Shown here piece by piece: positions 750-20,000 of a DNA stretch of 20,000 bases. Source of the DNA: an uncultured virus (IMG/VR IMGVR_UViG_3300034198_023361) (lineage: Duplodnaviria; Heunggongvirae; Uroviricota; Caudoviricetes); IMG/VR virus record IMGVR_UViG_3300034198_023361. One strand, 5' to 3'. The position numbers and the translations under genes were made by a program. Under the pieces are notes generated by a model. That model was not told where the DNA came from. It saw only the letters and a program-made list of their open reading frames with translations, and did not search any database. Within the stretch, counting starts at the first letter, position 1. Every line of letters begins with the position of its first letter.

Positions 750-2195
750 ATGGACAGCCTCTCAGCACTTGATCCGCTCTCGTGGGACCCGCAGTATTAT
801 CGCGAGCATCCCGCCTACGCCGCCGGCAACGCGCTCGGCTGGCTCTACCGCAGCGGCAACAAGCAGGCCGCCACAAGTTATCCGCTTGCTGGTCGGCTCT
901 ATCTCGCCAAATCTGGCTGGCTTTTGTTATCTGTACCGAATGCGCTCGTCCGCGGCGTATTTGACGCGTTAACCGAACCCGGCGTTGAATTACCGACTGC
1001 TGGCGTGTTTAACGTTCCAAACGTTAAGGGCGATCTGGTAAATGCGCATATATCAATCATGACGGCCGATGAGGTAGCATCTATCGGTGCTGACAAGATT
1101 AACGAGCGCGGCCACATGTTTGGCTACACGCTGGGCGGGCTGAAAGAAATCGACGTCAAAAACGTCAACGGTGTAAGCAAAGTTTGGGCAATTCAAGTTT
1201 CCGCCCCGGGACTTTCGGCGCTGCGAAAGAGTTACGGACTGTCGGCTCTTCCCAATGACGACCACCCGTTTCACATTACGGTCGCTGCCAGACGTAAAGG
1301 CGTCCTGCTCGACAACGGCAAGTCGAAGGGTTACGAAACCCCTGCCGAAACGACGGAAGGGCAGCGGTTTAGTAACCCCATCAGCAGGGGAGAGCTTAAA
1401 GCCGCCGCAGAACTTTCCCGCTCGGGACAAAACGACCTGTTACCGGGTGGAAAAGCCGATAATGTTCCCGATCGGGATTTTTCTGTACCAGCGTTAGCCG
1501 AAGGAGCTAAACATGAGCACGAACACACAAGAGACGATCAAATCGCCAAAGAAATTGCCAAGGATCATCTGCAAGAAGACCCGCTGTACTACGAAAAAAT
1601 CGAAAAAATAGAGAAGGGCGCGGAAGAAGAACCCAAAGTTAAGAAACCGAACACTCTCGACGAGTTGCGTGCGGCGAAAACCCACTCCGACCGCCGTGAA
1701 TACGATCGCAAGCACGAGATCTTGCGGCGATTAATCTCGCAATCGCCGCAGGATTGGAACGTCGATGATCCTAAGCCGAAATACAAAGGCATTACGCACG
1801 GCCCGACCAAGTTTCGGTTTCATGCGCCCGCCGGAGTGATCGGTTCGCAGGTTAAAGCCGCTGACAATAGTGTGTATGCGCAGCAGTTCCGCAACTTACT
1901 CGATCTGCGAACGCCGTTTGTATACGACCACAACAAACCAGTGTTCGCAAACGTGACAGACCATCTGCTCAAGGCTAAACAGCGGGGTGATTTCATTCTG
2001 GCGTCGCGACAGAAGTCGCATTTGTATCGCTCGATGCTCGATCCGCAGTATAGATATCAAATGGCGCAAGCCGCCGCGACCGGAACACTGCCGCAAATGA
2101 ACATGTTCGATAAGGCAACACAGCTATACGGCAATGACATCTTTGACACCATTCAAAACTGGGGGAAAAACAATGGAAACGCCGCTGCTCGATAA
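750..2195 (+). CDS. Modular protein: N-terminal 2H-phosphoesterase (LigT/Acb1-like) domain, DUF5661-like domain and two unknown segments
   Basis: Paired HxS/HxT motifs: HISI (1047-1058) and HITV (1272-1283). The segment GAKHEHEHTRDDQIAKEIAKDHLQEDPLYY (about 1437-1607) matches the E-x-EH...A.EIA.DHL.E.P.YY pattern I recall for DUF5661. No Cys. Confidence 0.7.
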   Translation: MDSLSALDPLSWDPQYYREHPAYAAGNALGWLYRSGNKQAATSYPLAGRLYLAKSGWLLLSVPNALVRGVFDALTEPGVELPTAGVFNVPNVKGDLVNAHISIMTADEVASIGADKINERGHMFGYTLGGLKEIDVKNVNGVSKVWAIQVSAPGLSALRKSYGLSALPNDDHPFHITVAARRKGVLLDNGKSKGYETPAETTEGQRFSNPISRGELKAAAELSRSGQNDLLPGGKADNVPDRDFSVPALAEGAKHEHEHTRDDQIAKEIAKDHLQEDPLYYEKIEKIEKGAEEEPKVKKPNTLDELRAAKTHSDRREYDRKHEILRRLISQSPQDWNVDDPKPKYKGITHGPTKFRFHAPAGVIGSQVKAADNSVYAQQFRNLLDLRTPFVYDHNKPVFANVTDHLLKAKQRGDFILASRQKSHLYRSMLDPQYRYQMAQAAATGTLPQMNMFDKATQLYGNDIFDTIQNWGKNNGNAAAR

Positions 2196-4349: not shown

Positions 4350-5177
4350 ATGGCACGGAAGCCAACAAATCAAGCCAGCGAGTCTCATGTTCTGCCGATT
4401 AGCGAAATTTTGCGCCGGCTCCACACGCTGGGGTATTTCGGCGACAAAACGCTGGCGCAGGTCAAGAAACTCAAAGGCGCTGAACTACAGAAAGCGGTTC
4501 GGGCGTTTCAGGAATTCAACGGCCTGAACCCGACGGGCACGGTCGGCCCCAAGACCGCGCACCGCATCAATCGCCGGCGCTGCGGGCTGCCTGATTTCAA
4601 TATCACAGCTCCCGGCGGCGATCCGTGCAAATGGCCGATGCCGAACATCTCGTACTATCACGAGATTCATCTACCCGGGCTCACCACGACTCAAGTAGCC
4701 GAAGCGTACGACATTGCGTTTTCGCAGTGGGCCGAGGTGTGTGCGATTGATCCGACGCGCGTTGATACGGCAAACAAAGCGAACATTTATGCGCGCTCCG
4801 GCATGGGCAAAAAGAACGGTTTAGATAATAAAGGCGGCACGTTGGCGTGGAGTGAGCTGCCGTGCGGAGTTGCCGAGAATGTGCAGCTTGATCAAATGTT
4901 TGACGAAGCCGAAGACTGGTCATTCAACATGGCCGTTGCCGTTATCTGCCACGAACTTGGTCACGCGCTCGGGTTGCCGCATTTAAACGCCGGCAACCTG
5001 ATGGCCCCCTACTACGATCCGAATGTTACAAAACCGAAAGAAGGCGACATCTCGGAGATCATCAAGCTGTACGGAAAACGCACAAAAGCGTATCCGATTA
5101 CAAAAGATGCCGGATTACAAATTAATGGCACGATCCTTATCAATGGTCGTCCGTATGTACTTGTTCCAAAAACGTGA
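4350..5177 (+). CDS. Matrixin (M10/MMP-like) zinc metalloprotease with a PG-binding-like prodomain and cysteine switch
   Basis: PG-binding-like segment AVRAFQEFNGLNPTGTVG, cysteine switch RCGLPD (4578-4595), zinc motif HELGHALGLPH (4950-4982), Met-turn LMAPYY. Confidence 0.9.
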   Translation: MARKPTNQASESHVLPISEILRRLHTLGYFGDKTLAQVKKLKGAELQKAVRAFQEFNGLNPTGTVGPKTAHRINRRRCGLPDFNITAPGGDPCKWPMPNISYYHEIHLPGLTTTQVAEAYDIAFSQWAEVCAIDPTRVDTANKANIYARSGMGKKNGLDNKGGTLAWSELPCGVAENVQLDQMFDEAEDWSFNMAVAVICHELGHALGLPHLNAGNLMAPYYDPNVTKPKEGDISEIIKLYGKRTKAYPITKDAGLQINGTILINGRPYVLVPKT

Positions 5178-7872: not shown

Positions 7873-8232
7873 ATGGATGTCACCGAAAAAGAAGCATTTA
7901 AGCTGGGGTTTCTCCAACGTTGCGCGGAAGAACAATTGACAGGGCCCACGCTGGAATCGCGCATCAAGGCCGCGGAAGCTTTTGTAAAAGGCGCCGCGCT
8001 CCAGCTCCCCTCAATGTCTGATTCGTGGCAGGCGCTGGGTAACGTCGCGTACGCGCCGCTTATGCTGGCCACTGTTGGCGGCGGTCTAGCCGGGCATCTC
8101 GCCGGCAAGATGACGGAGCCAGACGTCGACGAAGAAGACCTGAAAGCCCGCGAACTGGCCGCTGCTTACAAAGCGTACGCGGCCCGAGCCAAGACCAACA
8201 AGAAGTTACGTCTCTACCGTCCAGAAAGGTAA
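7873..8232 (+). CDS. Hypothetical protein with a Gly-zipper helix
   Basis: Contains LMLATVGGGLAGHLAG after a KGAA motif. Confidence 0.75.
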   Translation: MDVTEKEAFKLGFLQRCAEEQLTGPTLESRIKAAEAFVKGAALQLPSMSDSWQALGNVAYAPLMLATVGGGLAGHLAGKMTEPDVDEEDLKARELAAAYKAYAARAKTNKKLRLYRPER

Positions 8233-8235
8233 TTT

Positions 8236-8583
8236 GTGAGCCTGCGCAAATATCACGGCGAACTTGGCGGCCCGCAGCACAATAACGCGCAACTGAACTG
8301 GCCGGGAACCCTCGACGGGTTTCCTGTGCTGGGAAGCGGGCAGCGGCCGGATTTAAAGCAAGATGAACTGGAAAACATCGATATCCAGTATGACTTTAAA
8401 TCTCACATGTTTGAGATGTGGGATCCGGCGCAGAAAGCAGAATTTGACAACATAAATGATAAGATAGTCAACGGTTGGTATCGGCTGTTAAAAAGAACCG
8501 ACAATTGGGACGACGAGCATAAACATTTTCGTGTCTGGCTTGAATGGGCACAGGTTTATGGCATGATTCCGCCCAAACACTAA
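8236..8583 (+). CDS. Hypothetical protein
   Basis: GTG start after AAAGG. 115 aa, no Cys. Confidence 0.7.
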   Translation: MSLRKYHGELGGPQHNNAQLNWPGTLDGFPVLGSGQRPDLKQDELENIDIQYDFKSHMFEMWDPAQKAEFDNINDKIVNGWYRLLKRTDNWDDEHKHFRVWLEWAQVYGMIPPKH

Positions 8584-8595
8584 TGAGCGCGACCA

Positions 8596-9453
8596 ATGGA
8601 AAAATCAGCAAACAATGTCGTCCCACCCGCTGCCCCTGTTGGCAAACCTACCGCCCAAGATTACCAGCGTTTCTGGGGCGATCGTATTATGCGCACTGGT
8701 GTCGGCGGGCTTGGCCTTGGTGCTGGTGCCGCTAGTCTTTATTATCTGGCCCGCGGGCTTTCTCAGGCGTTAAACAAGCCGAAGTACGAAGAAGAAGATG
8801 AAGAGACGCCCAAGATCACTGAAACCAAAGCGGCCGGTTTATACGACACCGTTGCTGAAGGTGTTGGCAAGGCGCTGCCCGACTCCGTCTTGAGCTTTCT
8901 GCGCCCGTTTACGCCAGACGCGTCGCCAAAGAAACCGAACTCGTACGACCCCAACGTGATCCGGTCGTCGTTCGGAACCGGCGCGACAGTCGGCGCTGGC
9001 GCACTAGGACTGTACGGCGGCTATAAGTTGATCGATGCAATGCACAAGCGCAAGAAACGCCGCGACCAGCAGGCCGCTATCGCCGACGCGGAAAAAGAAT
9101 ACTACGACGCGCTGACCGGCGGCGGCGCCAAGCAGCTCGACAGTGTTTACGATACCGCCAGTGAAAAGGCGGCGGCAGAAAAAACAGCGCTGCTCGATTG
9201 GATTACAGGCGCGTACGACGTTGCAAAGCGCGTTCCGGCTACGGTTGGCGGCGCGTATGTCGGCGCCGGGCTTGGGCTCGGCGGCCTCGCGGCGAAGCTT
9301 ATGTACGACCGGGCTCGCGAGCGTTCCCGCGCCAAGGCGGTTGAAGAGGCCGCAAAGTCGAAGGCCCGTATCTCCGGTATTTTGCCGACGTACGTAGACC
9401 CCGACGAAATCATCGCGCTGAAGAAACAAGTCGAGCACTCGCAGGCGGGGTGA
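8596..9453 (+). CDS. Three-module Gly-zipper protein (possible ejection polyprotein)
   Basis: Three Gly-rich hydrophobic helices, each downstream of a K-x-A motif (EKSA, TKAA, EKAAAEKTA). No Cys. Confidence 0.75.
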   Translation: MEKSANNVVPPAAPVGKPTAQDYQRFWGDRIMRTGVGGLGLGAGAASLYYLARGLSQALNKPKYEEEDEETPKITETKAAGLYDTVAEGVGKALPDSVLSFLRPFTPDASPKKPNSYDPNVIRSSFGTGATVGAGALGLYGGYKLIDAMHKRKKRRDQQAAIADAEKEYYDALTGGGAKQLDSVYDTASEKAAAEKTALLDWITGAYDVAKRVPATVGGAYVGAGLGLGGLAAKLMYDRARERSRAKAVEEAAKSKARISGILPTYVDPDEIIALKKQVEHSQAG

Positions 9454-9456
9454 TCC

Positions 9457-12400
9457 ATGCCAGCCCCCGAGCTGCCTGAGTTAAAGTCGTCGATGATGCC
9501 CGCGCCCGCTGCGCCCACGATGCGCACATTTGGCGATGTTGGCATGATGCGCGATAACATCTTCAATCAGGCGTTGACGAGCGCGCAGAGCCTCAAACCG
9601 CTGCAAAACGACCTGTATACGTTGCAACTCCAAGACGTTGGTTACACAGGACCTGAACGTTTTACAAGGTCAGATCAGAAGACAGCTGTCCTTTCTAGAG
9701 GGACACTTGCCCGCCGGCTGCAAGGTACGTGGACGCTTACAGATAACAAAACCGGCCAACCCGTCGGCCAACGCCGCGCCACGATAGCCCACGTGCCGTA
9801 TCTCACTGACTCTGGCACGTTCGTTAACGGCGGCGTTGAGTACACCCTTGCGCATCAGATGCGGTTGCGCCCCGGCGTGTTTACCCGCGAAAAAGACAAC
9901 GGCGAAATCGAGGCGCACGTAAACACGTTACCGGGTAAGGGTCGTTCGCATCGGTACTTCCTCGACCCAAAGACTGGCGTGTTCAAGATCAGCATCGGGC
10001 AGGCGCAGATCCCGCTTATGCCGCTGCTCAAATCCATGGGCGTGACCGATCAAGATATTCGCAAGGCGTGGGGCAACGAGATTACCGCGGTTAACATGGA
10101 GAAGGGCGACGCGGGCACGATGGACAAGATCTACGCGCGCCTTGTAAACAAACCCGTCGCCGGCGCAGACGCTATTGCCAAAGCGCAGGCCATCGCCGCC
10201 GAGTTTGCCAAGACCGAACTTGACCCGGAAGTTACACGTCGCACTCTGGGGTCTGAATACAAAAACATGACGCCAGAGACTATTCTGGCGATCACTAAAA
10301 AATTAATCGCAGTGAATCGCCGCGAGGCCGAAAGCGACGACCGCGACAACATGGTGTACCAGTCCGTTGTCGGCCCTGAAGACCTCATTGCCGAGCGGTT
10401 TACCAAAGACCGGCAATCTCTTAACAAACTGCTCTGGAAAGCAACCGCAAAGAAGTCAATCGATCACATCCCATCAGGCGTGTTCGACAAAGCTATCTCG
10501 GCGGCGCTCATTGGCAGCGGACTTGGGTCGAGCCTAGAAGAAATCAACCCGGCCGAGATCTTTGACCATCAGACGCGCGTGACCCGAATGGGCGAAGGCG
10601 GCATCGGCTCACTGGACGCCGTGCCCGCCGAGTCGCGTTCGGTCCAGCCCAGCCATCTTGGGTTTATTGACTACCTCCGCACGCCCGAGTCTGGAAAAGT
10701 GGGCGTCGACATGCGGTTTGCCCGCGGCGCCATGAAAGGCTCCGACGGCAAGATATACACGCCGGTTGTAGATATGAAAACCGGTGAAAAGGTGTACAAA
10801 ACACCGCAAGAGCTGGCCGACACGCCGCTCGTGTTTCCGGGTGAAGAAGATAACAACCTGCCCGTTGTGGCTGCGCTTGTTAACGGCAAACTGAAGTACG
10901 TACCGCGGAAAGAAGCGCAGTTCAGTTTGCCGAACATGGACACGACGTTCTCGGCCCTCACGAACATGGTGCCAATTAAATCCATGATCAAAGGCCATCG
11001 TGTGATCATGGGCAGTCGAATGTTTACGCAGGCGCTTCCGCTCGTAAACGCTGAAGCGCCCTTACTGCAGTCCGCTAAAGCTGATGATGAAAACGTTTCG
11101 CACGAAGACGAGATGGGCGAGAAACTTGGTGCCACGCGCGCAACTGAGCGGGCACAAGTAGTTGACGTGACACCCGACGGTATCGTGCTGCGCGACAAAG
11201 ACGGTAATAAGAAGACAATCGATCTCTATAACGAGATGCCGTACAACCGTAAGACGTTCTTACATCAGACGCCGCTTGTAAAGCCCGGCGACACGATCGA
11301 ACCCGGGCAGCTGCTGGCAAGGTCAAATTTTACTGATCAAAACGGTAGCGCAGCGTTAGGGCTTAATCTGCGTACAGCGTATTTGCCTTTTCGCGGCAAG
11401 AACTACGAAGACGCTGTAGTTATTTCTGAATCTGCATCCAAGCGGCTGACGTCTGAGCATATGTATCAGCACGAAGCCGAGTGGGACGACAACACTCACG
11501 TTGGCAAGAAGGCGTTCGTGAGTTTGTTCCCGACTGAGTATGACAAAAAGTTTCTTGATCAATTTGACGACAATGGCGCGATTAAAAAAGGCGCCGAGGT
11601 CAAGTTTGGCGATCCGCTCGTACTTGTGGCCAAAAAGAAAGACACAGTGTACGGCAAAGTGCATCGTGGGCGCGCCGGTAACTTCACTAACGAAACGATT
11701 ACGTGGGATCATCACGCGCCCGGAATTGTGACCGACGTTATGCACACCAAAAAGGGTGTCAGCGTCGTGGTGAAGAATCAATCGCCCATGGACGTAGGCG
11801 ACAAGCTTACCGGTCGCTTTGGCGATAAAGGCGTCGTGGCCGAGATTGTCCCGGACGATCAGATGCCCAAAGACCGCGACGGCAACCCGTTTGAAGTGCT
11901 GGTCTCGCCGTTGGGGTTGATCAGCCGTATTAACCCCACGCAGGTGATTGAAGCGGCGCTCGGTAAAGTTGCTGCCAAAACCGGCAAACCGTACAAGCTC
12001 AAAGATTTTGATAACAAGCGCGACCTAATTGAGTTTGCGCAAAAAGAATTAGCCGCGCACGGGTTGTCCGACACTGAAGATGTAATCGATCCAGAAACAG
12101 GCCGCAAAATCGGCGGTGTGCTCACGGGTAATCGGTTTTTCATGAAGTTGCATCACACCAGTGAATCAAAGGCGCAGGGCCGGTCGATGGGCGCGTATAC
12201 CGCCGAAGGTACGCCAGCGAAAGGCGGCAGTGAGGGCGCCAAGCGCATCGGTATGTTAGATCTTGGCGCGCTGCTATCTCACGGCGCCGGCAAAGTTATT
12301 CGCGACGCCAAGATGGTGCGCGGCCAAGCTAACCCAGAGTACTGGTCGCAGTTCATGGCTGGTTACACCCCGCCACTGCCCAAAGTGCCGCACGTCTATG

Positions 12401-13860
12401 AGAAATTCGTCACGCAGCTGAAAGCGTCTGGTATCAACGTTGTGCGCAAGGGCACCCGTTCAAACCTGATGGCGATGACGGACAAGGACGTCGACGAACT
12501 AGCCGGCCCACGCGAGTTAAAAAGTTCTGAGACCGTGGACTGGAAAGGGCGGCTCAAGCCTATTGCCGGTGGGCTATTTGACGAGACATTAACAGGCGGA
12601 CACGGCGGTAACCGGTGGAGCAAGATCACGCTGCATGAGCCGCTGCCCAATCCCGTCATGGAAGACCCGATTCGCCGCGTGTTGGGCCTGACCGAGAAGC
12701 AGTTCCGTGGTGTGCTGGCTGGCCGAGAGCAGCTAGGCGATAAAACCGGTCCCACAGCGATTAAATCTGCGTTGGAAAGAATTAACTTGCCGAAGGCGAT
12801 CGAACAGGCGCGGGAAGATATCAAATCCGGGCGTAAGACACTGCGCGACGCCGCAGTAAGGCGGCTAGGATTTTTAAAGAGCGCTGAAACAACCGGCGTG
12901 CACCCCAAGGACTGGATGATCAGTAAAGTCCCGGTGCTGCCGCCGCTTTTCCGCCCCGTCAGCACGATGGGTAGCAAGAAGCTACCGCTCGTTGCTGACG
13001 CTAATTATCTGTACAAAGAACTGCTCGACGCGAACGATACGCTGAAAGAAGCGTCTGGCGCACTATCTGACTACGGCGACGAACGCCTGAGCGTGTACGA
13101 CTCGATGAAGGCTGTTACCGGGTTAGGCGAGCCGCAACAGCCCAAGAACGTCGAGCGTAATGTCAAAGGTTTCCTGCGGCACGTGTTTGGCAACTCGCCT
13201 AAGTACGGCACTGTTCAGCGTAAGCTGCTCAGCTCGACGGTAGACCTTGTCGGCCGCGCTGTCATCACACCAAACCCCGATCTCGACATGGACGAGGTCG
13301 CGCTACCAGAAGAGAAGGCGTGGGACATTTACAAGCCGTTTGTTGTCCGCGGCCTTGTCCGCCGCGGCCTCCCGCGTATGCAGGCCATGCAGGCGGTCGA
13401 GGATAAGAACAAAGAAGCGTTTGCTGAGTTAAATCAGCAGATGTCATCGCGGCCAATTGTTATCAACCGCGCCCCAGTACTTCACCGTTACGGCATGATG
13501 GCGTTTTACCCCAAGTTAACTAAAAACAAAGTCATGGAAGTGAACCCCGTAATTACCAAGGGGTTTGGCGCCGACTTTGACGGCGACGCGATGCAGTATC
13601 ACGTTCCGAGTACAGAAGACGCCGCAAAAGAAGCTGTTGAAAAGATGCTGCCAAGCAAGAACTTGTTTGCAACAGCGACGTTTCGGGCGCACTACGTTCC
13701 TAACAAAGACTACCAGACTGGGTTATACTTGGCGTCCAGTCGGATCAGTAAAAAAGCCAAACCCCGCGTGTTTCGTAGCAAGCAGGACGCCGTGCAGGCG
13801 TACCGGCGAGGCGAAATAGAGGTGGACACCCCGGTTCATATTGTGGAAGATAATACGTAA
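9457..13860 (+). CDS. DNA-directed RNA polymerase: full beta subunit fused to the N-terminal part of beta' (RpoB-RpoC-N-like)
   Basis: Beta motifs: GTFVNGGVEY...RPGVF, NYEDAVVISE, GDKLTGRFGDKG (11797-11832), MKLHH, and C-terminal LKASGINV (about 12420-12441). In-frame beta' motifs follow: PVLPPLFRP, GRAVI, NRAPVLHR and catalytic ADFDGD (13570-13587). Confidence 0.95.
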   Translation: MPAPELPELKSSMMPAPAAPTMRTFGDVGMMRDNIFNQALTSAQSLKPLQNDLYTLQLQDVGYTGPERFTRSDQKTAVLSRGTLARRLQGTWTLTDNKTGQPVGQRRATIAHVPYLTDSGTFVNGGVEYTLAHQMRLRPGVFTREKDNGEIEAHVNTLPGKGRSHRYFLDPKTGVFKISIGQAQIPLMPLLKSMGVTDQDIRKAWGNEITAVNMEKGDAGTMDKIYARLVNKPVAGADAIAKAQAIAAEFAKTELDPEVTRRTLGSEYKNMTPETILAITKKLIAVNRREAESDDRDNMVYQSVVGPEDLIAERFTKDRQSLNKLLWKATAKKSIDHIPSGVFDKAISAALIGSGLGSSLEEINPAEIFDHQTRVTRMGEGGIGSLDAVPAESRSVQPSHLGFIDYLRTPESGKVGVDMRFARGAMKGSDGKIYTPVVDMKTGEKVYKTPQELADTPLVFPGEEDNNLPVVAALVNGKLKYVPRKEAQFSLPNMDTTFSALTNMVPIKSMIKGHRVIMGSRMFTQALPLVNAEAPLLQSAKADDENVSHEDEMGEKLGATRATERAQVVDVTPDGIVLRDKDGNKKTIDLYNEMPYNRKTFLHQTPLVKPGDTIEPGQLLARSNFTDQNGSAALGLNLRTAYLPFRGKNYEDAVVISESASKRLTSEHMYQHEAEWDDNTHVGKKAFVSLFPTEYDKKFLDQFDDNGAIKKGAEVKFGDPLVLVAKKKDTVYGKVHRGRAGNFTNETITWDHHAPGIVTDVMHTKKGVSVVVKNQSPMDVGDKLTGRFGDKGVVAEIVPDDQMPKDRDGNPFEVLVSPLGLISRINPTQVIEAALGKVAAKTGKPYKLKDFDNKRDLIEFAQKELAAHGLSDTEDVIDPETGRKIGGVLTGNRFFMKLHHTSESKAQGRSMGAYTAEGTPAKGGSEGAKRIGMLDLGALLSHGAGKVIRDAKMVRGQANPEYWSQFMAGYTPPLPKVPHVYEKFVTQLKASGINVVRKGTRSNLMAMTDKDVDELAGPRELKSSETVDWKGRLKPIAGGLFDETLTGGHGGNRWSKITLHEPLPNPVMEDPIRRVLGLTEKQFRGVLAGREQLGDKTGPTAIKSALERINLPKAIEQAREDIKSGRKTLRDAAVRRLGFLKSAETTGVHPKDWMISKVPVLPPLFRPVSTMGSKKLPLVADANYLYKELLDANDTLKEASGALSDYGDERLSVYDSMKAVTGLGEPQQPKNVERNVKGFLRHVFGNSPKYGTVQRKLLSSTVDLVGRAVITPNPDLDMDEVALPEEKAWDIYKPFVVRGLVRRGLPRMQAMQAVEDKNKEAFAELNQQMSSRPIVINRAPVLHRYGMMAFYPKLTKNKVMEVNPVITKGFGADFDGDAMQYHVPSTEDAAKEAVEKMLPSKNLFATATFRAHYVPNKDYQTGLYLASSRISKKAKPRVFRSKQDAVQAYRRGEIEVDTPVHIVEDNT

Positions 13861-13880
13861 TCGTTAAACATGGAGGCTGT

Positions 13881-14609
13881 ATGTTCACGGTCAACCCCGA
13901 ACTTATCGCGCTCGCGAAAGCGCGTTTTGAAAAATCTGCATTAGTGCCCGGAGCGGCGGTGGATCCCGCTGCTGCTGGTGGTGCTCCGCCGGTTGACCCA
14001 GCCGCCATGGGGGCTGTACCGCCGGCCGATCCGTCTGCTGTTGCTGCAGCAGCGGCACCGCCAGCAGATCCAGCGGCTATGGGAATGGCGCCTCCCGCTG
14101 CACCTCCCGCAGCGCCCGCCGCACCCGCCGCTCCGGGCGCAGCTCCTGCTGGTGCGCAGCAAAAGCTCAAGCCCGAGCAGATGATGCAAATGCTCGACTA
14201 TCGTCTGTACAACATGCAGCAGCAACTTACTGCAATTATGAACGCGATGGGCGTGCAGGTTCCGCCGGAGTCGCTAGTCCTGCCGCCGGGAACGACTGGC
14301 GCCCCGCCGGCCGAAACTGCGCTTCCGGGCGGGCCTATGGCGCCCCCGCCGCAAGATCCAAACGCGCAGGGCGGTATGCAGCCGCCGGGCGGCCCGACAC
14401 CTCCGGGCGGGCCCATGCCGCCGAACGCCGCGCCGCCAGAAGGTGACCCGTCGAAGGCCGCGTGGTGGGACCGCCACGAAAAATCAGCGTCTTCGATCGG
14501 CCGCCCGTTCGGCCCCGGCTATTCCAATCCGAACGCGCCGACGCAGATGCAAATCAAAGCAAACGCTATCGCCGCCATGATTCGGAGCATAGCGGACAAT
14601 GCTGGTTAA
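13881..14609 (+). CDS. Pro/Ala-rich, largely disordered protein with a central helical segment
   Basis: GGAGG RBS. Imperfect (V/A)DPAA(M/A)G repeats, a helical MMQMLDYRLYNMQQQLTAIMNAMG segment, and EKSA motifs near both ends. Confidence 0.75.
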   Translation: MFTVNPELIALAKARFEKSALVPGAAVDPAAAGGAPPVDPAAMGAVPPADPSAVAAAAAPPADPAAMGMAPPAAPPAAPAAPAAPGAAPAGAQQKLKPEQMMQMLDYRLYNMQQQLTAIMNAMGVQVPPESLVLPPGTTGAPPAETALPGGPMAPPPQDPNAQGGMQPPGGPTPPGGPMPPNAAPPEGDPSKAAWWDRHEKSASSIGRPFGPGYSNPNAPTQMQIKANAIAAMIRSIADNAG

Positions 14610-14838
14610 AACGCAACACAGTCTGCAGCCCAGCGAAAAAAAAGCACACAGCGTGATTGTCGAAGACGATCTCGGCAATCCGCTGTTTGTTGCTATTCAA
14701 GTTGATGAAGCCATTGTTTACTCAACAGTTGGCGAGAAAGAGTTTCACTCGCTGCTGCGCGCACTCGGTGTCGACAAAACGGTCGTCGTGTCCGAATTTC
14801 AGCCGAAGTCGATGCAGAAAATAATGTGGACGCCGTGA
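14599..14838 (+). CDS. Small hypothetical protein (79 aa)
   Basis: Overlaps the upstream stop and ends 1 nt before the beta'-C ATG. Confidence 0.65.
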   Translation: MLVKTQHSLQPSEKKAHSVIVEDDLGNPLFVAIQVDEAIVYSTVGEKEFHSLLRALGVDKTVVVSEFQPKSMQKIMWTP

Positions 14839-14839
14839 C

Positions 14840-16720
14840 ATGCTAAAGACAACGCTCGGCCAACTTCTGATTAACGAGGCGTTGCCGCCAGAAATGCGCG
14901 ACTATGATCGCGTATTGAATAAAAAAACTATGTCAAACGTGGCGACTGATCTGGCCAAGAACCACCCAGAAAAATATCGTGACGTGATGAAGCGGCTTCA
15001 CGATATTGGTCGCGACGCTGGATATACCACAAACGGCCTGTCGTTCAGCCTCAAAGACATTCGCCCCACGCTGGCCGCGCGACACGTGCAGTTGCGCGTG
15101 CAGAACCAGATGCGCGATCTCTTTGCTGACAAGCGTCTTGATGAAAAACAGCGCAACATCAAGTTGCTTGAACTAGCGCAGACCGCGCAACAAGAGCTGC
15201 TAGACAAAGTGTATAAAGAAGCTGAGGGGCAAGATAACCCACTCGCGCATCAGATTTCTGGGGCGGGCGTGGGCAACAAGTTTCAGCTGAACTCAATTAT
15301 TGGCGCCGACATGCAGTACCTCGATCACCGCGGCGACCCGATTCCAATTCCGGTGCTGCGCGGGTACAGCCAAGGCTTGCGGCCTGTGGAATATTTTGCC
15401 GGAGCATTCGGCACGCGCAAAGGTGTTATCGACCTCAAGACGGCTACAGCTGACGCCGGTTTCTACGGTAAACAGCTGGCGCAGATGACGCACCGCCTGC
15501 TGGTTACAGCCGACGACGATGACGACACGGACGAAGAGCGGCGCATGGCCGCAGAAGAGCGCGGCTACCCGACTGACGTAGACGACCCCGACAATGAAGG
15601 CGCTTTTCTTGCGCGAGCCGTTGGGCCGTACAAGCGCAATACGATGCTGACGCCCAAAATTCTGCGGGATCTGAAAGAAAGCGGCGCTAAAGATATCTTA
15701 GTCCGCAGTCCGATTGTCGGCGGCCCGGGAGACGGTGGAGTTTATGCGAAAGACGTCGGTTACAGGGAAAAGGGGCGTTTACCGCCTATTGGAGATTATG
15801 TGGGTATCGCGGCAGCACAAGCGCTGTCGGAACCAGTCACGCAAAGCCAGATCAGCTCGAAGCATTCTGGCGGTGTCGGCGGCGCAGGCGCGATTTCGGG
15901 TTTTAAAGCGCTCAACGCGCTTGTACAGGTCCCGAAGAAATATCCAGATGGCGCCGTGCACGCCCAGCTTGACGGCCGGGTACAGGAAGTTCGTCCGGCT
16001 CCGCAGGGCGGCCACTATGTGCAGATTAACGGTCAGGACCACTACGTTCCGACGGAGAGAAATCTTTCGGTTAAAAAGGGCGATGAGCTTGAGGCTGGCG
16101 ACGTTATATCAGAAGGTATGCCAAATCCGGCAGAAATTGTCCGCCACAAGGGCGTAGGCGAGGGGCGGCGTTACTTTGTGCAGGCCATGCGGCAGGTCAT
16201 GGGTAACAGCGGTATTACAGCTCATCGCCGCAACATCGAGCTACTGGCGCGTGGGCTTGTAAATCATGTGCGCCTCACGGACGAATATGGCGATTATGTG
16301 CCAGATGATGTAGTGCCGTATTCATCGATCGAACGAAACTGGACTCCGCGTGAAGGTAGCGTATCTGCCGCACCCAGCACATTGACCGGGCATTATTTAG
16401 AAAAACCAGTACTGCACTATTCAATCGGCACGAAGATCGGTAAAAACGTGCTGACAAACCTAAACAAATACGGCGTAAAAACAATTCAAGCGCACAAAGA
16501 GCCACCGCCGTTCCAGCCTGAAATGGTCCGCGGTATGGCTAACATATCCAACGACCCTGACTGGATGACCCGTATGTTGGGCTCGTATCAAGAAAAAGGG
16601 CTTATGAACAGCGTGCAGCGCGGTTTAAGCAGCGATACCGCGGGCAGCAGTTATGTGCCTTCTTTAGCCCACGGCGAGCAATTCGGTGTAACAGGCGCAA
16701 CAAGCGGGTGGAAGCCTTGA
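14840..16720 (+). CDS. DNA-directed RNA polymerase, C-terminal part of beta' (RpoC-C-like; bridge helix and trigger loop)
   Basis: Starts with TTLGQLLINEALP. Bridge helix GLRPVEYFAGAFGTRKGVIDLKTATADAGF (from 15374). Trigger loop region GDYVGIAAAQALSEPVTQSQISSKHSGG (15791-15874). Also contains HRRNIELLAR. Confidence 0.92.
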   Translation: MLKTTLGQLLINEALPPEMRDYDRVLNKKTMSNVATDLAKNHPEKYRDVMKRLHDIGRDAGYTTNGLSFSLKDIRPTLAARHVQLRVQNQMRDLFADKRLDEKQRNIKLLELAQTAQQELLDKVYKEAEGQDNPLAHQISGAGVGNKFQLNSIIGADMQYLDHRGDPIPIPVLRGYSQGLRPVEYFAGAFGTRKGVIDLKTATADAGFYGKQLAQMTHRLLVTADDDDDTDEERRMAAEERGYPTDVDDPDNEGAFLARAVGPYKRNTMLTPKILRDLKESGAKDILVRSPIVGGPGDGGVYAKDVGYREKGRLPPIGDYVGIAAAQALSEPVTQSQISSKHSGGVGGAGAISGFKALNALVQVPKKYPDGAVHAQLDGRVQEVRPAPQGGHYVQINGQDHYVPTERNLSVKKGDELEAGDVISEGMPNPAEIVRHKGVGEGRRYFVQAMRQVMGNSGITAHRRNIELLARGLVNHVRLTDEYGDYVPDDVVPYSSIERNWTPREGSVSAAPSTLTGHYLEKPVLHYSIGTKIGKNVLTNLNKYGVKTIQAHKEPPPFQPEMVRGMANISNDPDWMTRMLGSYQEKGLMNSVQRGLSSDTAGSSYVPSLAHGEQFGVTGATSGWKP

Positions 16721-16801
16721 ACCTGTTTTTGTAGGATATAGGGACCGCGACGCAGTAAATTAATGCTGTGTCTAATTTTGAGCGCAGCATGGAGGCTGGC
16801 C

Positions 16802-19183
16802 GTGTATAACAAAAAAGCGAAAGAGTCGTCTGTTAAGCATTGGTTGAAGGTAATGCAGTCGTATGACCGCACCCAGACCAAATATGCCGATCTAGGCGGC
16901 AAAGGCGACGACACCTCCTTCGAGCAGTCGTTTAGCAATCTGGCCCACGCCTATCTGCGCGATTCGGCCCCCAAGCTGCTCGACCACGAAATTGGTTTCC
17001 AGCTTCTCGACCGTAACCGGGAAAACACCAAGGCGGTTGGTGTTTTTGCGTTCAAGGTTGGCTCTAACTGGCTGTATGCGCCGGTGTTCTTCCTCAACGG
17101 CGACCTCAAAGGCCACGAACTCCTGTATATCAAAAATCAGGACATGTTCGTACCGCTTAAGGAAAACTGGATTAACTACCTGATCAACCGCAAGCCCAAC
17201 ATTCTGGGTAGCGGCGTGCAACGCAACCTGTCGGGCATGGGCCAGCGCCAACCGGACTTTACGCAGCTTTCGCGCAGCCCGGCCAAGTTTGGCTCTGCGC
17301 AGCCCACACTCAAAGAGATGATGACGGCTGCGATGCCGGCTCTCGCCAAGAGCGCTACGTTAAATACCGCGCAGGCGTTCAAGGAAATGGGCGACGCGCT
17401 GAACCTGAAGACGTTTCTGAAACAGGCTGGCCGTGAAGTAATCGGCACGCTTATTAACACGTGCAAGCACGCCCCGCAGATCGCCTCCGCCATCGATGAA
17501 TTCTATGGTTTAGATATCATCAAGGAAGCGATGGCCGAAGCGAAGAAGCGTGAACTCGCCGCCAGCGCCAAGATAGCCAGCGTGCTGTCCGAAGCGCCCA
17601 AGAAACCCGCCGCCCAAGCCGGTCTGAAGGTCATCACGTATGATGCGACGGTGCAGACCAAGGCCCCGCACGGCTACACGGAAGAAGATCAGGAGAAGTT
17701 ACTGCGCGACGGCGTGCTGATCCAAGACCAGCGCGACCGCGACAACGTCTCGGTGCCGTATCACATTCAGGTCGAAAAGAAGCTGTTTAATCCGACCGAA
17801 AGCGGCCTGTACGAGATTCTGGTCAAGCCGGGCAACATCGAGCGTTGCTACGTTGCCGTACATCCGCAAGGCGCCGTCAAGCGTGAAAACTTCATCACCG
17901 TCGTGCGCGTCGATGGCGCGCGTAACTGGTTAAACACCCGCGCTGACCAAGTCTTTGCGCTGGCGCGCATTGAGGGCGAAGAGTTTGACAAGTGGTTTGA
18001 CAGCCTGCCGGAAGCCAACAGCGTTCCGAGCAAGGATGCCCGTTACATTGCGCTCAGCAAACGTAACGACACTACTGCGCCGTTTCGCGTGATCAAAGAG
18101 TACGGCAATAGCGAAGATAGCACGATTTACGAAGTGCATCTTGAGGATCACTCAAAGTATCCGCCCAAGGGCAGCGTTTGCGGCAGCTGCTATACCGACC
18201 CGCTGAACTACGACAAGTACCGCGACGGTGTTCGAATTCACCTTAACGGTAAAAAGGGTTCCAGCCTGCGCGCCAGCATGGGCGACATTTTTGTGCCGGA
18301 GGGTTTCAAGCTTCTTAAGGTGAGCAAAGGCGAAGATGACGCCGAAAACGCGGAAGATCAGAACGCATGTGGTTGTGGTGAGAGTGATCCGCCGGCCCTG
18401 ATGCCCGGCAACCTTGTTGACGCGCAACTGGCTCTTATGCAAAAGACCGCCGCGCTGACGGTTTATCACAACGGCTCGTCGGTAACGATTAACAAAGAAG
18501 CCAACCTGAACCCGATCAAAGCGCTCGTTACGCTAGTGGAACACCACGGCCTCCGCGAGCAGGCTGCCCGCGAGATCTTGAAACAAGCGGCCGCCAAGCG
18601 CAAGTTTGAGTGCCGCGTTAAGTACGCCGACCCGTACGGCGGCCCGATGATGATCAACGGCGCTCCGTCAGCGCCGACTGATCCGGGTCCGGTAATGGGC
18701 GGCGAAAGTATCATGGGCACAAACGTTCCTACACAGCTTGGCATTGATACCGCCATGCAGGTGCCGGGCATGAGCGCTAGTCAAACGGACCGCAGCGTTT
18801 ACAACCCGAATACGCTGCTCGACCAAAAAGACGTTCGTTCTGTTATTGATGCCGCGCAGAGCGGACAGCGCGAGGTGTTCGACACCGCGATGGTCGGCGC
18901 CATGTTGCGTGCCGTTCGAGACGACTCGCTTGTCGATAGGTACATGGGCGAGCTGACCAAGGGCCTCGATAAGCTCGGCCGTATCCTGTTCATGTTCTAC
19001 TGGCACGGTGACCGGTTTGCCGAACGTTACGGCAAGGCCGACATGCCGGAACTGGAAGACTCGCTGCGCAACGCGTTTGAAATGCTAGGCGACGTCATTC
19101 TGTTCCTCAAGCAGAAGACGATTGAGCCGTACCCGGAAGAAGCCGCGCAGGATATTGATCTTGGCGCTATCGCAAACGCTTAA
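16802..19183 (+). CDS. Large hypothetical protein (about 793 aa), possibly virion-associated
   Basis: GGAGG (16791-16795) precedes an in-frame GTG at 16802. Many K-x-A motifs. No catalytic motif recognised. Confidence 0.8.
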   Translation: MYNKKAKESSVKHWLKVMQSYDRTQTKYADLGGKGDDTSFEQSFSNLAHAYLRDSAPKLLDHEIGFQLLDRNRENTKAVGVFAFKVGSNWLYAPVFFLNGDLKGHELLYIKNQDMFVPLKENWINYLINRKPNILGSGVQRNLSGMGQRQPDFTQLSRSPAKFGSAQPTLKEMMTAAMPALAKSATLNTAQAFKEMGDALNLKTFLKQAGREVIGTLINTCKHAPQIASAIDEFYGLDIIKEAMAEAKKRELAASAKIASVLSEAPKKPAAQAGLKVITYDATVQTKAPHGYTEEDQEKLLRDGVLIQDQRDRDNVSVPYHIQVEKKLFNPTESGLYEILVKPGNIERCYVAVHPQGAVKRENFITVVRVDGARNWLNTRADQVFALARIEGEEFDKWFDSLPEANSVPSKDARYIALSKRNDTTAPFRVIKEYGNSEDSTIYEVHLEDHSKYPPKGSVCGSCYTDPLNYDKYRDGVRIHLNGKKGSSLRASMGDIFVPEGFKLLKVSKGEDDAENAEDQNACGCGESDPPALMPGNLVDAQLALMQKTAALTVYHNGSSVTINKEANLNPIKALVTLVEHHGLREQAAREILKQAAAKRKFECRVKYADPYGGPMMINGAPSAPTDPGPVMGGESIMGTNVPTQLGIDTAMQVPGMSASQTDRSVYNPNTLLDQKDVRSVIDAAQSGQREVFDTAMVGAMLRAVRDDSLVDRYMGELTKGLDKLGRILFMFYWHGDRFAERYGKADMPELEDSLRNAFEMLGDVILFLKQKTIEPYPEEAAQDIDLGAIANA

Positions 19184-19193
19184 TAGGTGAAAC

Positions 19194-19613
19194 ATGGCTA
19201 GCACGATTTGGTCGGGCACAACTACATTCACAGCTACCAGCGGCAGTGAAACAATCGTACCGGTGAAGATGCCGCATCGCGGTATCCTGCGCGGTTATGC
19301 GCTTGTGCAAACAAGTGGCGGCAACAACAAGTTTGAGGCCGACCTGTATTCAAGTAATCAGGAGACGGAACCGAACGCATCGCTGCCGGCCGAGGCGTTT
19401 CATGTTCTCAGCCTTGCCGATTTTGCCGATGTCGTGTCTGACCCTGATGTCGTGGCGATTGCTGAAAACAGCAACATTAACGTGGCGTATCTGAACCGCG
19501 ACGGTTCTCCGTCAAATCCGCAGCGGTTCTTATATCTTTGGATCAAACCGAACGGTTCCGGCGCTAAGAATTTCGTGCTGACCGTTACCGTTGAAACCCC
19601 AATGCTGCGCTAA
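19194..19613 (+). CDS. Hypothetical beta-rich protein, possibly structural
   Basis: AGGTG RBS. Thr/Ser-rich N-terminus and alternating hydrophobic patterns. Confidence 0.7.
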   Translation: MASTIWSGTTTFTATSGSETIVPVKMPHRGILRGYALVQTSGGNNKFEADLYSSNQETEPNASLPAEAFHVLSLADFADVVSDPDVVAIAENSNINVAYLNRDGSPSNPQRFLYLWIKPNGSGAKNFVLTVTVETPMLR

Positions 19614-19628
19614 GTAAGGAGTGCTACT

Positions 19629-19946
19629 ATGCCTGACACACGTGTATTTCGCGCGCTGCATTTCCCGCATCGACGCCGAGACGTTGTTAGCGAGTTAGAC
19701 CCGACGCCGATCAACGTGCAGCCCGGCGAGATACTGTACGACGAAAACGCAAACAAACTGTATGCCGGGCTTGAAGACACAACGGCTGTGCAGATTGGCG
19801 GCGCGGATAACAACTACGTAGAGAGCGACGTCGCCGAAATTCAGGGCGCAACGGTAATTACAAACATCGTCAAAATTACGCAAACCGGTTATAACGCGCT
19901 GCAGACTAAAGACCCGGCAACTGTGTACTACATTGTTTCCGGGTAA
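19629..19946 (+). CDS. Small tail/tail-fibre-associated protein
   Basis: AAGGAG RBS. PGEILYDENANKLYAG and C-terminal ITQTGYNALQTKDPATVYYI resemble short modules common in phage tail-fibre and minor tail proteins. Confidence 0.55.
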   Translation: MPDTRVFRALHFPHRRRDVVSELDPTPINVQPGEILYDENANKLYAGLEDTTAVQIGGADNNYVESDVAEIQGATVITNIVKITQTGYNALQTKDPATVYYIVSG

Positions 19947-19951
19947 TCGCT

Positions 19952-20000
19952 ATGCCAAGAGTAGACAGCGATACATACATAGGCAGCGCTAATATCACGT
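19952..20000 (+). CDS. Start of a truncated ORF (MPRVDSDTYIGSANIT...)
   Basis: ATG 5 nt after the previous stop, open to the window end. Confidence 0.5.
   Translation, partial: MPRVDSDTYIGSANIT

Follow-up and report, generated by a model that had tools for sequence, protein, structure and literature searches.

Few machines in biology are as conserved as multisubunit RNA polymerases, and the boundaries between their subunits are well catalogued and small in number. How, then, is the polymerase divided that is encoded in a 20,000-nucleotide (nt) stretch of DNA from an uncultured virus of the Caudoviricetes (IMG/VR record IMGVR_UViG_3300034198_023361; hereafter the window, meaning the whole stretch)? 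An earlier reading made from the sequence alone (the sequence-only reading) had proposed that beta is fused here to the N-terminal half of beta' (beta'N), and that the C-terminal half (beta'C) is a separate gene. Is this layout real, how far does it extend, and what kind of enzyme might it build? We find the layout to be fixed across a large clade of tailed phages with genomes of ~180-210 kb; among its members are the cultured Salmonella phage Arash and the Vibrio phages D69, D148 and D181. Multisubunit RNA polymerases encoded by phages are already known; the combination of a beta-beta'N fusion with a separate beta'C appears to have gone unnoticed.

Layout of the two polymerase genes

The fused gene (9457..13860, + strand) is a stop-free open reading frame (ORF) of 1467 amino acids (aa), which we characterised by Pfam, alignment to PDB chains and motifs. 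Its product consists of a complete beta (residues ~1-995), a linker of eight residues (996-1003) and the N-half of beta' (1004-1467), which comprises the clamp region and the Mg-binding barrel and ends ~85 residues beyond the DFDGD motif. The sequence-only reading had suggested mapping the Rpb1 and Rpb2 domains. With Pfam, Rpb2_3 (residues 360-417), Rpb2_6 (residues 584-915, E 2.6e-49) and Rpb1_2 (residues 1327-1395, E 3.8e-24) fall on this first chain, where Rpb2_2 and Rpb1_1 score under the cut-off, and Rpb1_5 (E 5.1e-24) falls on the second. In a phmmer search against PDB chains, the fused protein matched beta chains at E 1.9e-68 and beta' chains at E 1e-49: residues 43-1019 correspond to cyanobacterial beta 37-1077 of 1100 (8syi_C) and residues 1070-1463 to Bacillus subtilis beta' 142-540 (6wvj_D). 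These E-values, together with the conservation in every informative relative described below, put the layout far beyond chance. The last residue of the chain, 1467, falls at beta' ~540-561, so that the polypeptide does not contain a complete beta-beta'.

The barrel motif of beta, GDKLTGRFGDKG, which contains the catalytic lysines, lies inside the Rpb2_6 match (residues 781-792, 11797..11832, + strand). DFDGD is found at residues 1373-1377 (nt 13573-13587), and GADFDGD at 1371-1377 pairs with NADFDGD of beta'. Both catalytic barrels are thus on a single chain, as had been claimed. The junction, which was delimited by alignments (12421..12507, + strand), is made up of KASGINV at the end of beta (residues 989-995, nt 12421-12441), the linker VRKGTRSN and LMAMTDKDVDELAG, where the homology to beta' starts; LMAMTDKDVDELAG...ETVDWKGRLKPIAGGLFD after the linker matches the N-terminal motifs of bacterial beta' (B. 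subtilis beta' 27-53). The proposal that KASGINV runs in frame through about ten residues into RpoC motifs was therefore exact in its coordinates, and the linker has eight residues.

Beyond the junction, a part of beta' is missing. In an alignment of eight fused proteins, Arash and D69 among them, all eight lack the Cys4 Zn-binding domain of beta' and have no Cys across the junction stretch. The site of this absent domain of ~30 residues is marked in the window by TGGHGGNRW (12592..12618, + strand), and ~34 more residues downstream of it are likewise missing; in the fused chain, bacterial beta' 54-141 is swapped for ~22 residues.

The second gene (14840..16720, + strand) encodes the C-terminal half of beta', a protein of 626 aa that starts with MLKTTLGQ and was assigned by Pfam and PDB-chain alignment. 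Its landmarks are TTLGQ (nt 14849-14863), the bridge helix (nt 15374-15478) and the base of the trigger loop (nt 15803-15874). Residues 179-213 (bridge helix) and 322-345 (trigger loop) align with their beta' counterparts, and the protein corresponds to mycobacterial beta' 664-1186 (5tw1_D), C-terminal region included. The ends of the two ORFs agree with the claim that beta' stops at 13860 and resumes with a TTxG motif in the gene at 14840. On the reference chain 8i23_D the fused gene ends at residue 561 and the beta'C gene begins at 577; the two genes therefore abut, with ~15 reference residues missing. A joining of the halves by a split intein or by read-through was considered and rejected because chain 1 is homologous to beta' down to its very end, chain 2 is so from residue 1-3 onwards, and two conserved genes intervene. 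Judged from these alignments, the two chains jointly hold every conserved element of the bacterial core except the Zn-binding domain. We regard it as nearly certain that the window encodes a bacterial-type polymerase core with a fused beta-beta'N and a separate beta'C.

The layout is fixed in a clade of large tailed phages

We compared the window with 50 related loci from IMG/VR (71-98% identity). The junction is reached by 47 of the 50, and all 47 are open across it in a single high-scoring segment pair. Where the ORF ends inside the locus, it stops at the same place (45/45); counted from the match start, these ORFs span 1381-1486 codons, or 1803-1808 with an insertion. The beta'C gene lies 861-1671 nt downstream in 43 loci, the others being cut by contig ends. 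Furthermore, we searched 1.84 billion cluster representatives (50% identity) without profiles, using residues 584-1467 as the query, and evaluated the best 150 of the 2313 matches at E <= 1e-30 (identity 45-62%). Among these best 150 of 2313, beta and beta'N are on one chain in every representative (150/150), the beta'C part is on the fused chain in none (0/150), and 148 end at most 18 residues from the end of the beta'N homology, the other two being truncated. In addition, the junction, the fused gene's stop and the beginning of beta'C are all bridged by contigs of four further sequencing runs, with no indels listed. We conclude that the fusion and the split are the fixed state of a very large clade and not a one-off rearrangement.

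The sequence-only reading had itself named an assembly error as what would overturn it; we looked for one and found the junction open in all informative loci and bridged by other runs. An artefact of assembly or sequencing, or a pseudogene, can be dismissed as the source of the fusion or the split, as the same frame, junction and stop recur in 47/47 and 45/45 informative loci and in 150/150 of the listed representatives, the same layout is present in two independently sequenced groups of cultured phages and on contigs of other runs, and peptides covered 100% of gp206, the fused protein of Arash, according to the part of its published description considered here (PMC10585845).

The source of the window is a roughly 200-kb freshwater tailed phage and not a cell. 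The nearest complete relative, G001 (205,044 bp, CheckV 100%), has a polymerase that is 98% identical, and it shares the gene order of the window at 19 of the 20 ORFs compared. With Pfam, its 245 ORFs include a large terminase, Baseplate_J, a primase, a DnaB-like helicase, a DNA polymerase A with a fused uracil-DNA glycosylase domain, and fibre proteins with collagen and lectin repeats; no ribosomal protein gene was found among them. One of the complete viral relatives has terminal repeats. A cellular contig with a diverged rpoBC operon might be suspected, since one close homologue is labelled as coming from a betaproteobacterial metagenome-assembled genome (MAG) and two fragments are in the bin of one MAG. 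However, the MAG matches are only 3-4-kb contigs, no ribosomal protein genes flank the polymerase genes, unlike in the two annotated bacterial rpoBC loci that we fetched as comparison, which lie behind rplKAJL, and the 205-kb relatives, rated as complete genomes of viruses, have genes for terminase, portal, capsid and baseplate. A cellular origin is thus excluded for all practical purposes, and the assumption that the element is viral stands; capsid and terminase genes, for which a search had been suggested, are both present in G001.

Among cultured phages, a tblastn search of the fused protein against 50,697 phage records yielded four that cover at least 80% of it: Arash (32% identity, in one piece) and D69, D148 and D181 (31%), each with a separate beta'C gene. 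The architecture of Arash (OQ632216), with gp206 of 1525 aa and gp216 of 606 aa, is the same as in the window, and throughout the Arash/Vibrio group the fused proteins (1525-1527 aa) share the end residue and are accompanied by a beta'C of 606-609 aa. Here too the Zn-binding domain is lost. There are differences: the Arash/Vibrio fused proteins have an extra insert of ~40 residues after the junction, and nine genes, six of them on the opposite strand, lie between the polymerase genes of Arash, whereas the window has two small genes there.

In these cultured relatives, the annotation of the genes goes no further than 'beta', 'beta prime' or 'hypothetical'. The part of the Arash paper considered here calls its polymerase genes beta and beta' and mentions no fusion (PMC10585845), and a beta-beta'N fusion in phages is undescribed in the literature searched (full text, with most subscription journals and supplements outside it). 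The sequence-only reading had treated a description in a characterised phage family as something that would remove novelty. The architecture is indeed present in the published Arash and in the GenBank Vibrio phages, but none of the papers searched remarks upon the fusion. This lowers the novelty, since the same genes are present in a cultured phage that has been published, with a layout that was apparently not noticed. As a side observation, several of the phage-filed records H5-H11 and H13-H16 (e.g. L079-L082) are really bacterial contigs, with rplKAJL-rpoBC (Salmonella, Acinetobacter) or unannotated rpoBC of Staphylococcus or Enterococcus, and such misfiled records inflate match lists for cellular-type genes.

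The similarity to Arash extends beyond the polymerase. In a comparison that covered ~112 kb of the 180.8-kb Arash genome, G001 shares with it the portal, the terminase, the major capsid protein, gp13, gp218, gp222, gp233 and gp236, and it also has homologues of the Arash sigma factor gp10 and of the SNF2 helicase gp217. Among the shared genes are several whose products the Arash authors had re-annotated as structural. The features of an Arash-like group, which is no formal taxon (fused beta-beta'N, beta'C, gp10-like sigma, gp217-like helicase, and portal, terminase and capsid), are thus all found. The G001 helicase is a 744-aa SNF2-family protein (41,322-43,556, - strand) that is 31-33% identical to gp217; gp217 directly follows beta'C in Arash, whereas the G001 homologue lies ~30 kb from the polymerase genes.

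Was the layout acquired once? We inferred two quick maximum-likelihood trees, one from the beta part and one from the beta'N part, of 19 fused proteins, four bacteria and three unfused phages. The fused proteins form one clade in both trees (Shimodaira-Hasegawa-like approximate likelihood ratio test, SH-aLRT, 99 and 98), within which Arash and D69 are the deep sister of the 17 metagenomic proteins. The four bacteria form a separate clade, and the unfused enzymes of Cobetia phage Carin-5, Vibrio phage Va2 and Rhizobium phage RHph_Y65 are outside the fused clade in both trees. A single, old origin of fusion and split would be the simplest reading. Counting against it, the trees sample few taxa and have midpoint rooting only and no archaeal or eukaryotic outgroup, and Carin-5 and Va2 are on long branches. 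The earlier statement that the enzyme is independently derived is thus backed only in so far as the fused clade is monophyletic and apart from bacteria and unfused phages.

Beyond the question of its origin, the fused gene is an intein hot spot. It exceeds 1600 aa (up to 3350) in 121 of the best 150 of 2313 matches, and Intein_splicing, LAGLIDADG or Hint domains were detected in three of six relatives tested, with a LAGLIDADG match under the cut-off in a fourth (the relatives behind this observation are P0010/L010, P0124, P0167 and P0182). For instance, the 347-aa insert of P0010 follows residue 411, between TPE and SGK of a conserved stretch; it begins with Cys, ends in ...GN and is followed by Ser. 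In Vibrio phage D181 (L083 5046-5994) the fused gene is annotated as two coding sequences of 514 and 1006 aa, which are separated by ~950 nt with a homing endonuclease; the interruption is a group I intron or else a recent natural split. A similar interruption is indicated for D148 by a two-piece match with a homing endonuclease, and the D69 gene is whole. Being a hot spot for homing endonucleases as well, the fused gene offers a natural set of permissive insertion sites.

A proposed two-chain enzyme and its alternatives

Gene content was assessed in five complete genomes, namely three from IMG/VR, Arash and D69. Each of the five has exactly one place with Rpb2_6 and exactly one with Rpb1_2 (1-2 adjacent matches), and in all five both barrels are in the same frame of 1468-1546 aa. 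The N-terminal domain of alpha (PF01000) and omega (PF01192) were found in none of the five genomes at E <= 0.1, with 14/14 controls detected, nor were alpha or omega found among the 245 ORFs of G001; what had been said of the window about these two subunits thus extends to complete genomes. For sigma the earlier statement has to be divided. No sigma gene is in the window, but Sigma70_r3 scores above the curated cut-off in 5/5 genomes, so that the 205-kb relative with the 98% identical polymerase and four further genomes of the clade encode a sigma70-like protein. In G001 this protein (284 aa) aligns with B. subtilis SigA 166-352 (E 1.8e-5) and matches Arash gp10 (E 7e-19), and its gene sits among baseplate and structural genes.

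The best explanation overall, which we favour with moderate confidence, is a two-chain, sigma-assisted phage polymerase that is probably packaged in the virion. Chain 1, beta with the N-half of beta', brings both double-psi barrels and with them the whole active centre onto one polypeptide, and chain 2, the C-half of beta', contributes the bridge helix, the trigger loop, the jaw and the C-terminus. The core would work without a phage alpha or omega, the covalent link between beta and beta'N taking over part of the role of alpha in assembly, and it would use the phage sigma70-like factor homologous to Arash gp10. That the tether would stand in for alpha in assembly is plausible; the sequence-only reading had likewise surmised that the fusion may lessen the dependence on alpha. 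The polymerase genes would be expressed late, along with the head genes, and the enzyme would be packed in the virion with sigma and the SNF2 helicase, delivered with the DNA, and start early transcription. As there is one polymerase set per genome, the enzyme may also serve later gene classes. The parts of this proposal are not equally firm. Assistance by the putative sigma factor is likely, and packaging is slightly favoured; independence from host alpha, by contrast with both, falls somewhat short of an even prospect.

The argument for packaging comes from Arash. In the part of its published virion mass spectrometry (MS) considered here, Gp206 has the most spectra of all proteins (3516), and Gp216, the helicase Gp217 and the sigma factor Gp10 have 1210, 1148 and 467, respectively (PMC10585845). 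Divided by protein length, these counts give 2.3, 2.0, 2.4 and 2.0 spectra per residue for Gp206, Gp216, Gp217 and Gp10, and such near-equal values are as expected if the four belonged to one complex. Furthermore, the polymerase genes run beside, and in the same direction as, genes with Arash homologues that were defined as structural by MS. This position beside structural genes in both lineages fits the proposal of late synthesis and packaging.

Several points weigh against this explanation. The virion evidence is from a relative at 32% identity and not from this phage, and the statements about whole genomes rest on near-identical relatives such as G001 and not on the window's own contig. The sigma-like protein is weak evidence, with region 2 undetected and region 4 at 19.5 bits against a cut-off of 24.1. 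Nor is independence shown by the missing alpha and omega genes, as the phage enzyme could recruit subunits of the host. For neither of the two intervening genes is there a homologue in the Arash or D69 loci that were compared. Lastly, the Arash authors, in the part of their paper considered here, offer either a role in early transcription or a carry-over of proteins abundant in the infected cell, and their virion list also holds ribonucleotide reductases and RNA ligases (PMC10585845).

That last point is the basis of an alternative in which the infection is started by host polymerase, the phage polymerase acts inside the cell on genes of the middle or late class, and what was seen in the Arash particles is carry-over of very abundant proteins. 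In its favour are the clearly non-structural enzymes in the same preparation (PMC10585845) and the single polymerase set per genome, whereas the phiKZ-type phages that package an enzyme encode a second, non-virion one, as far as the accounts of them considered here go. Nevertheless, Gp206 has the top spectrum count and the four components are near-equal per residue, the polymerase genes are within the structural block in Arash and in the clade of the window, and the sigma-like gene is among baseplate and structural genes. We therefore consider a purely intracellular enzyme unlikely.

Somewhat better placed, if still the less probable case, is the possibility that the two chains need a host alpha dimer and/or omega and that the fusion is neutral, a side effect of the genes being neighbours. 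Nearly the full length of the beta and beta' parts can be aligned with the bacterial subunits, the C-terminal region of beta' included, and the complete beta-beta' fusions of Helicobacter are reported to coexist with alpha. The lack of alpha and omega genes in all five genomes counts against such a need, but it is no argument against use of the host's subunits. Returning to the two-chain, sigma-assisted enzyme, its strongest version, a minimal self-assembling polymerase in which the link replaces the alpha scaffold and which is packaged with its own sigma and SNF2 helicase, must be considered doubtful. If true, an entire and very abundant group of ~200-kb freshwater, marine and enteric phages would be independent of host RNA polymerase from the first minute; among virion RNA polymerases, the enzyme would be the first to depend on sigma, and it would stand as a living intermediate between the multisubunit enzymes and those with two barrels on a single chain. 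Arash is a cultured, tractable member of the clade, whose polymerase proteins are abundant in particle preparations in the part of the paper considered (PMC10585845), and with it several questions can be asked: is alpha dispensable when beta and beta' are tethered, what is the purpose of the Zn-binding domain, and can a factor of the sigma type be carried in the virion?

Turning to the surroundings of the polymerase genes, all long ORFs of the window are on the + strand, and the G+C content is ~55%. The 980 nt that separate the fused gene from the beta'C gene hold two conserved genes. The first (13881..14609, + strand) encodes a Pro/Ala-rich protein of 242 aa, has GGAGG 5 nt ahead of its ATG and is kept in position in 44 of the 50 related loci; it has no family match in Pfam or PHROGs. 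The second is a conserved ORF of 79 aa (14599..14838, + strand), whose stop lies 1 nt before the ATG of beta'C (TGAcATG). It is present in 44/50 loci with identities down to 41%; for both genes, the remaining loci are cut by contig ends. The 79-aa protein has no Pfam match at E <= 5. Its structural model, a small beta-meander of five strands and one helix, is confident (predicted local distance difference test, pLDDT, 85), and the model gave no Foldseek match against PDB at E <= 0.001 and a best Z of 2.3 in a wide VIA-align search; going by the model, the protein has no detectable omega-like or other known fold. The polymerase genes are tightly coupled to their neighbours, with gaps of 3 nt and 20 nt, an 11-nt overlap and a gap of 1 nt. 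A scan of positions 8000-20000 for promoters and terminators gave nothing above chance (promoter-like, 3 vs 5.5 expected; terminator-like, 20 vs 17.7 expected).

Downstream of beta'C lies a gene for an 806-aa protein (16763..19183, + strand), a weak homologue of the Arash 'structural protein' gp218, which also follows the polymerase genes in Arash. It is followed by a gene with a tail-tip domain (19629..19946, Pfam). Further upstream, a 481-aa protein (window 750-2195) combines a 2H-SAK phosphoesterase domain with DUF5661, and its G001 counterpart (612 aa) has an additional inserted NUDIX domain; such a mix of domains is known from injected 'polyvalent' phage proteins. A 275-aa protein in the + block (4350-5177) has a peptidoglycan-binding domain and a matrixin-type (M10) metallopeptidase, and is possibly a virion-associated wall-degrading enzyme, judging by these domains. 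G001 also encodes a phage actin homologue ~11 kb from its polymerase genes, a 344-aa protein (28,785-29,816, L055:8785-9816, - strand) whose match to the Volactin actin-like family covers its full length (E 8e-62). In the same genome, a 2981-aa protein (73,879-82,824) combines an Mtd_N domain with 11 Laminin_G_3 repeats, and there are also several collagen-repeat proteins and a CsrA homologue.

Comparison with known polymerases

In Helicobacter and Wolbachia, complete beta-beta' fusions join the C-terminus of beta directly to the N-terminus of beta', two ends that are neighbours in the enzyme. The window shares this direct joining; its enzyme differs in being viral, in having a beta' that is cut and in lacking the Zn-binding domain. 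As beta' is cut after the catalytic barrel, the fusion holds only the first ~460 residues of beta'. In cyanobacteria and plastids, beta' is likewise divided after the Mg-binding barrel, into gamma (RpoC1) and RpoC2. However, cyanobacterial gamma is not fused to beta, whereas the N-half of beta' in the window is, and the window's break falls ~70 residues earlier, with gamma chains (624-626 aa) aligning only as far as residues 553-558. The split just before TTxG, which the sequence-only reading had set apart from the cyanobacterial one, is thus borne out.

Among phage enzymes, those of the phiKZ/AR9 type have two barrels, no alpha or omega, one set that is packaged in the virion, and a beta' that is split after the barrel. 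Their beta is in 2-3 chains with nothing fused, each genome encodes two sets of the enzyme, and sigma is absent, according to the accounts considered here. The window, by contrast, has a whole and fused beta, and its clade has one set and a sigma-like gene (5/5 genomes); the similarity of the window's proteins to phiKZ-type PHROG families is weak. The mReC phages (Weinheimer and Aylward 2020) branch deeply in the tree of that study, whose criteria called for NADxDGD in the beta' protein and for a beta and a beta' that are separate and each at least 800 aa long; every row in the part of their table considered lists two different proteins (PMC7481178). Under that length rule, as given in the part of the paper considered, the 626-aa beta'C of the window would fail (PMC7481178). 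The enzymes of the mReC phages and of the cultured Carin-5, Va2 and RHph_Y65 (phrog_24349/25354) have a bacterial-like, alignable beta and beta', as the window does; unlike the window, they have two whole, separate subunits, of 927-1192 aa in the cultured phages. In Carin-5 a sigma gene adjoins the polymerase genes, which in Carin-5 and RHph_Y65 lie beside replication genes; the Va2 locus holds mostly hypothetical proteins. In the crAss-like phage virion RNA polymerase and in YonO both barrels are on one polypeptide, and the crAss-like enzyme is carried in the virion; in the accounts considered, both are too diverged for alignment with cellular subunits. The fused chain of the window, in contrast, aligns with bacterial beta (E 1e-68) and beta' (1e-49).

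Survey criteria and annotation pipelines that expect two long, separate subunits will mislabel or miss this clade. The layout that we describe here is a fourth stable way of dividing the beta/beta' core: one chain has both barrels, and the other has the mobile parts, namely bridge helix and trigger loop.

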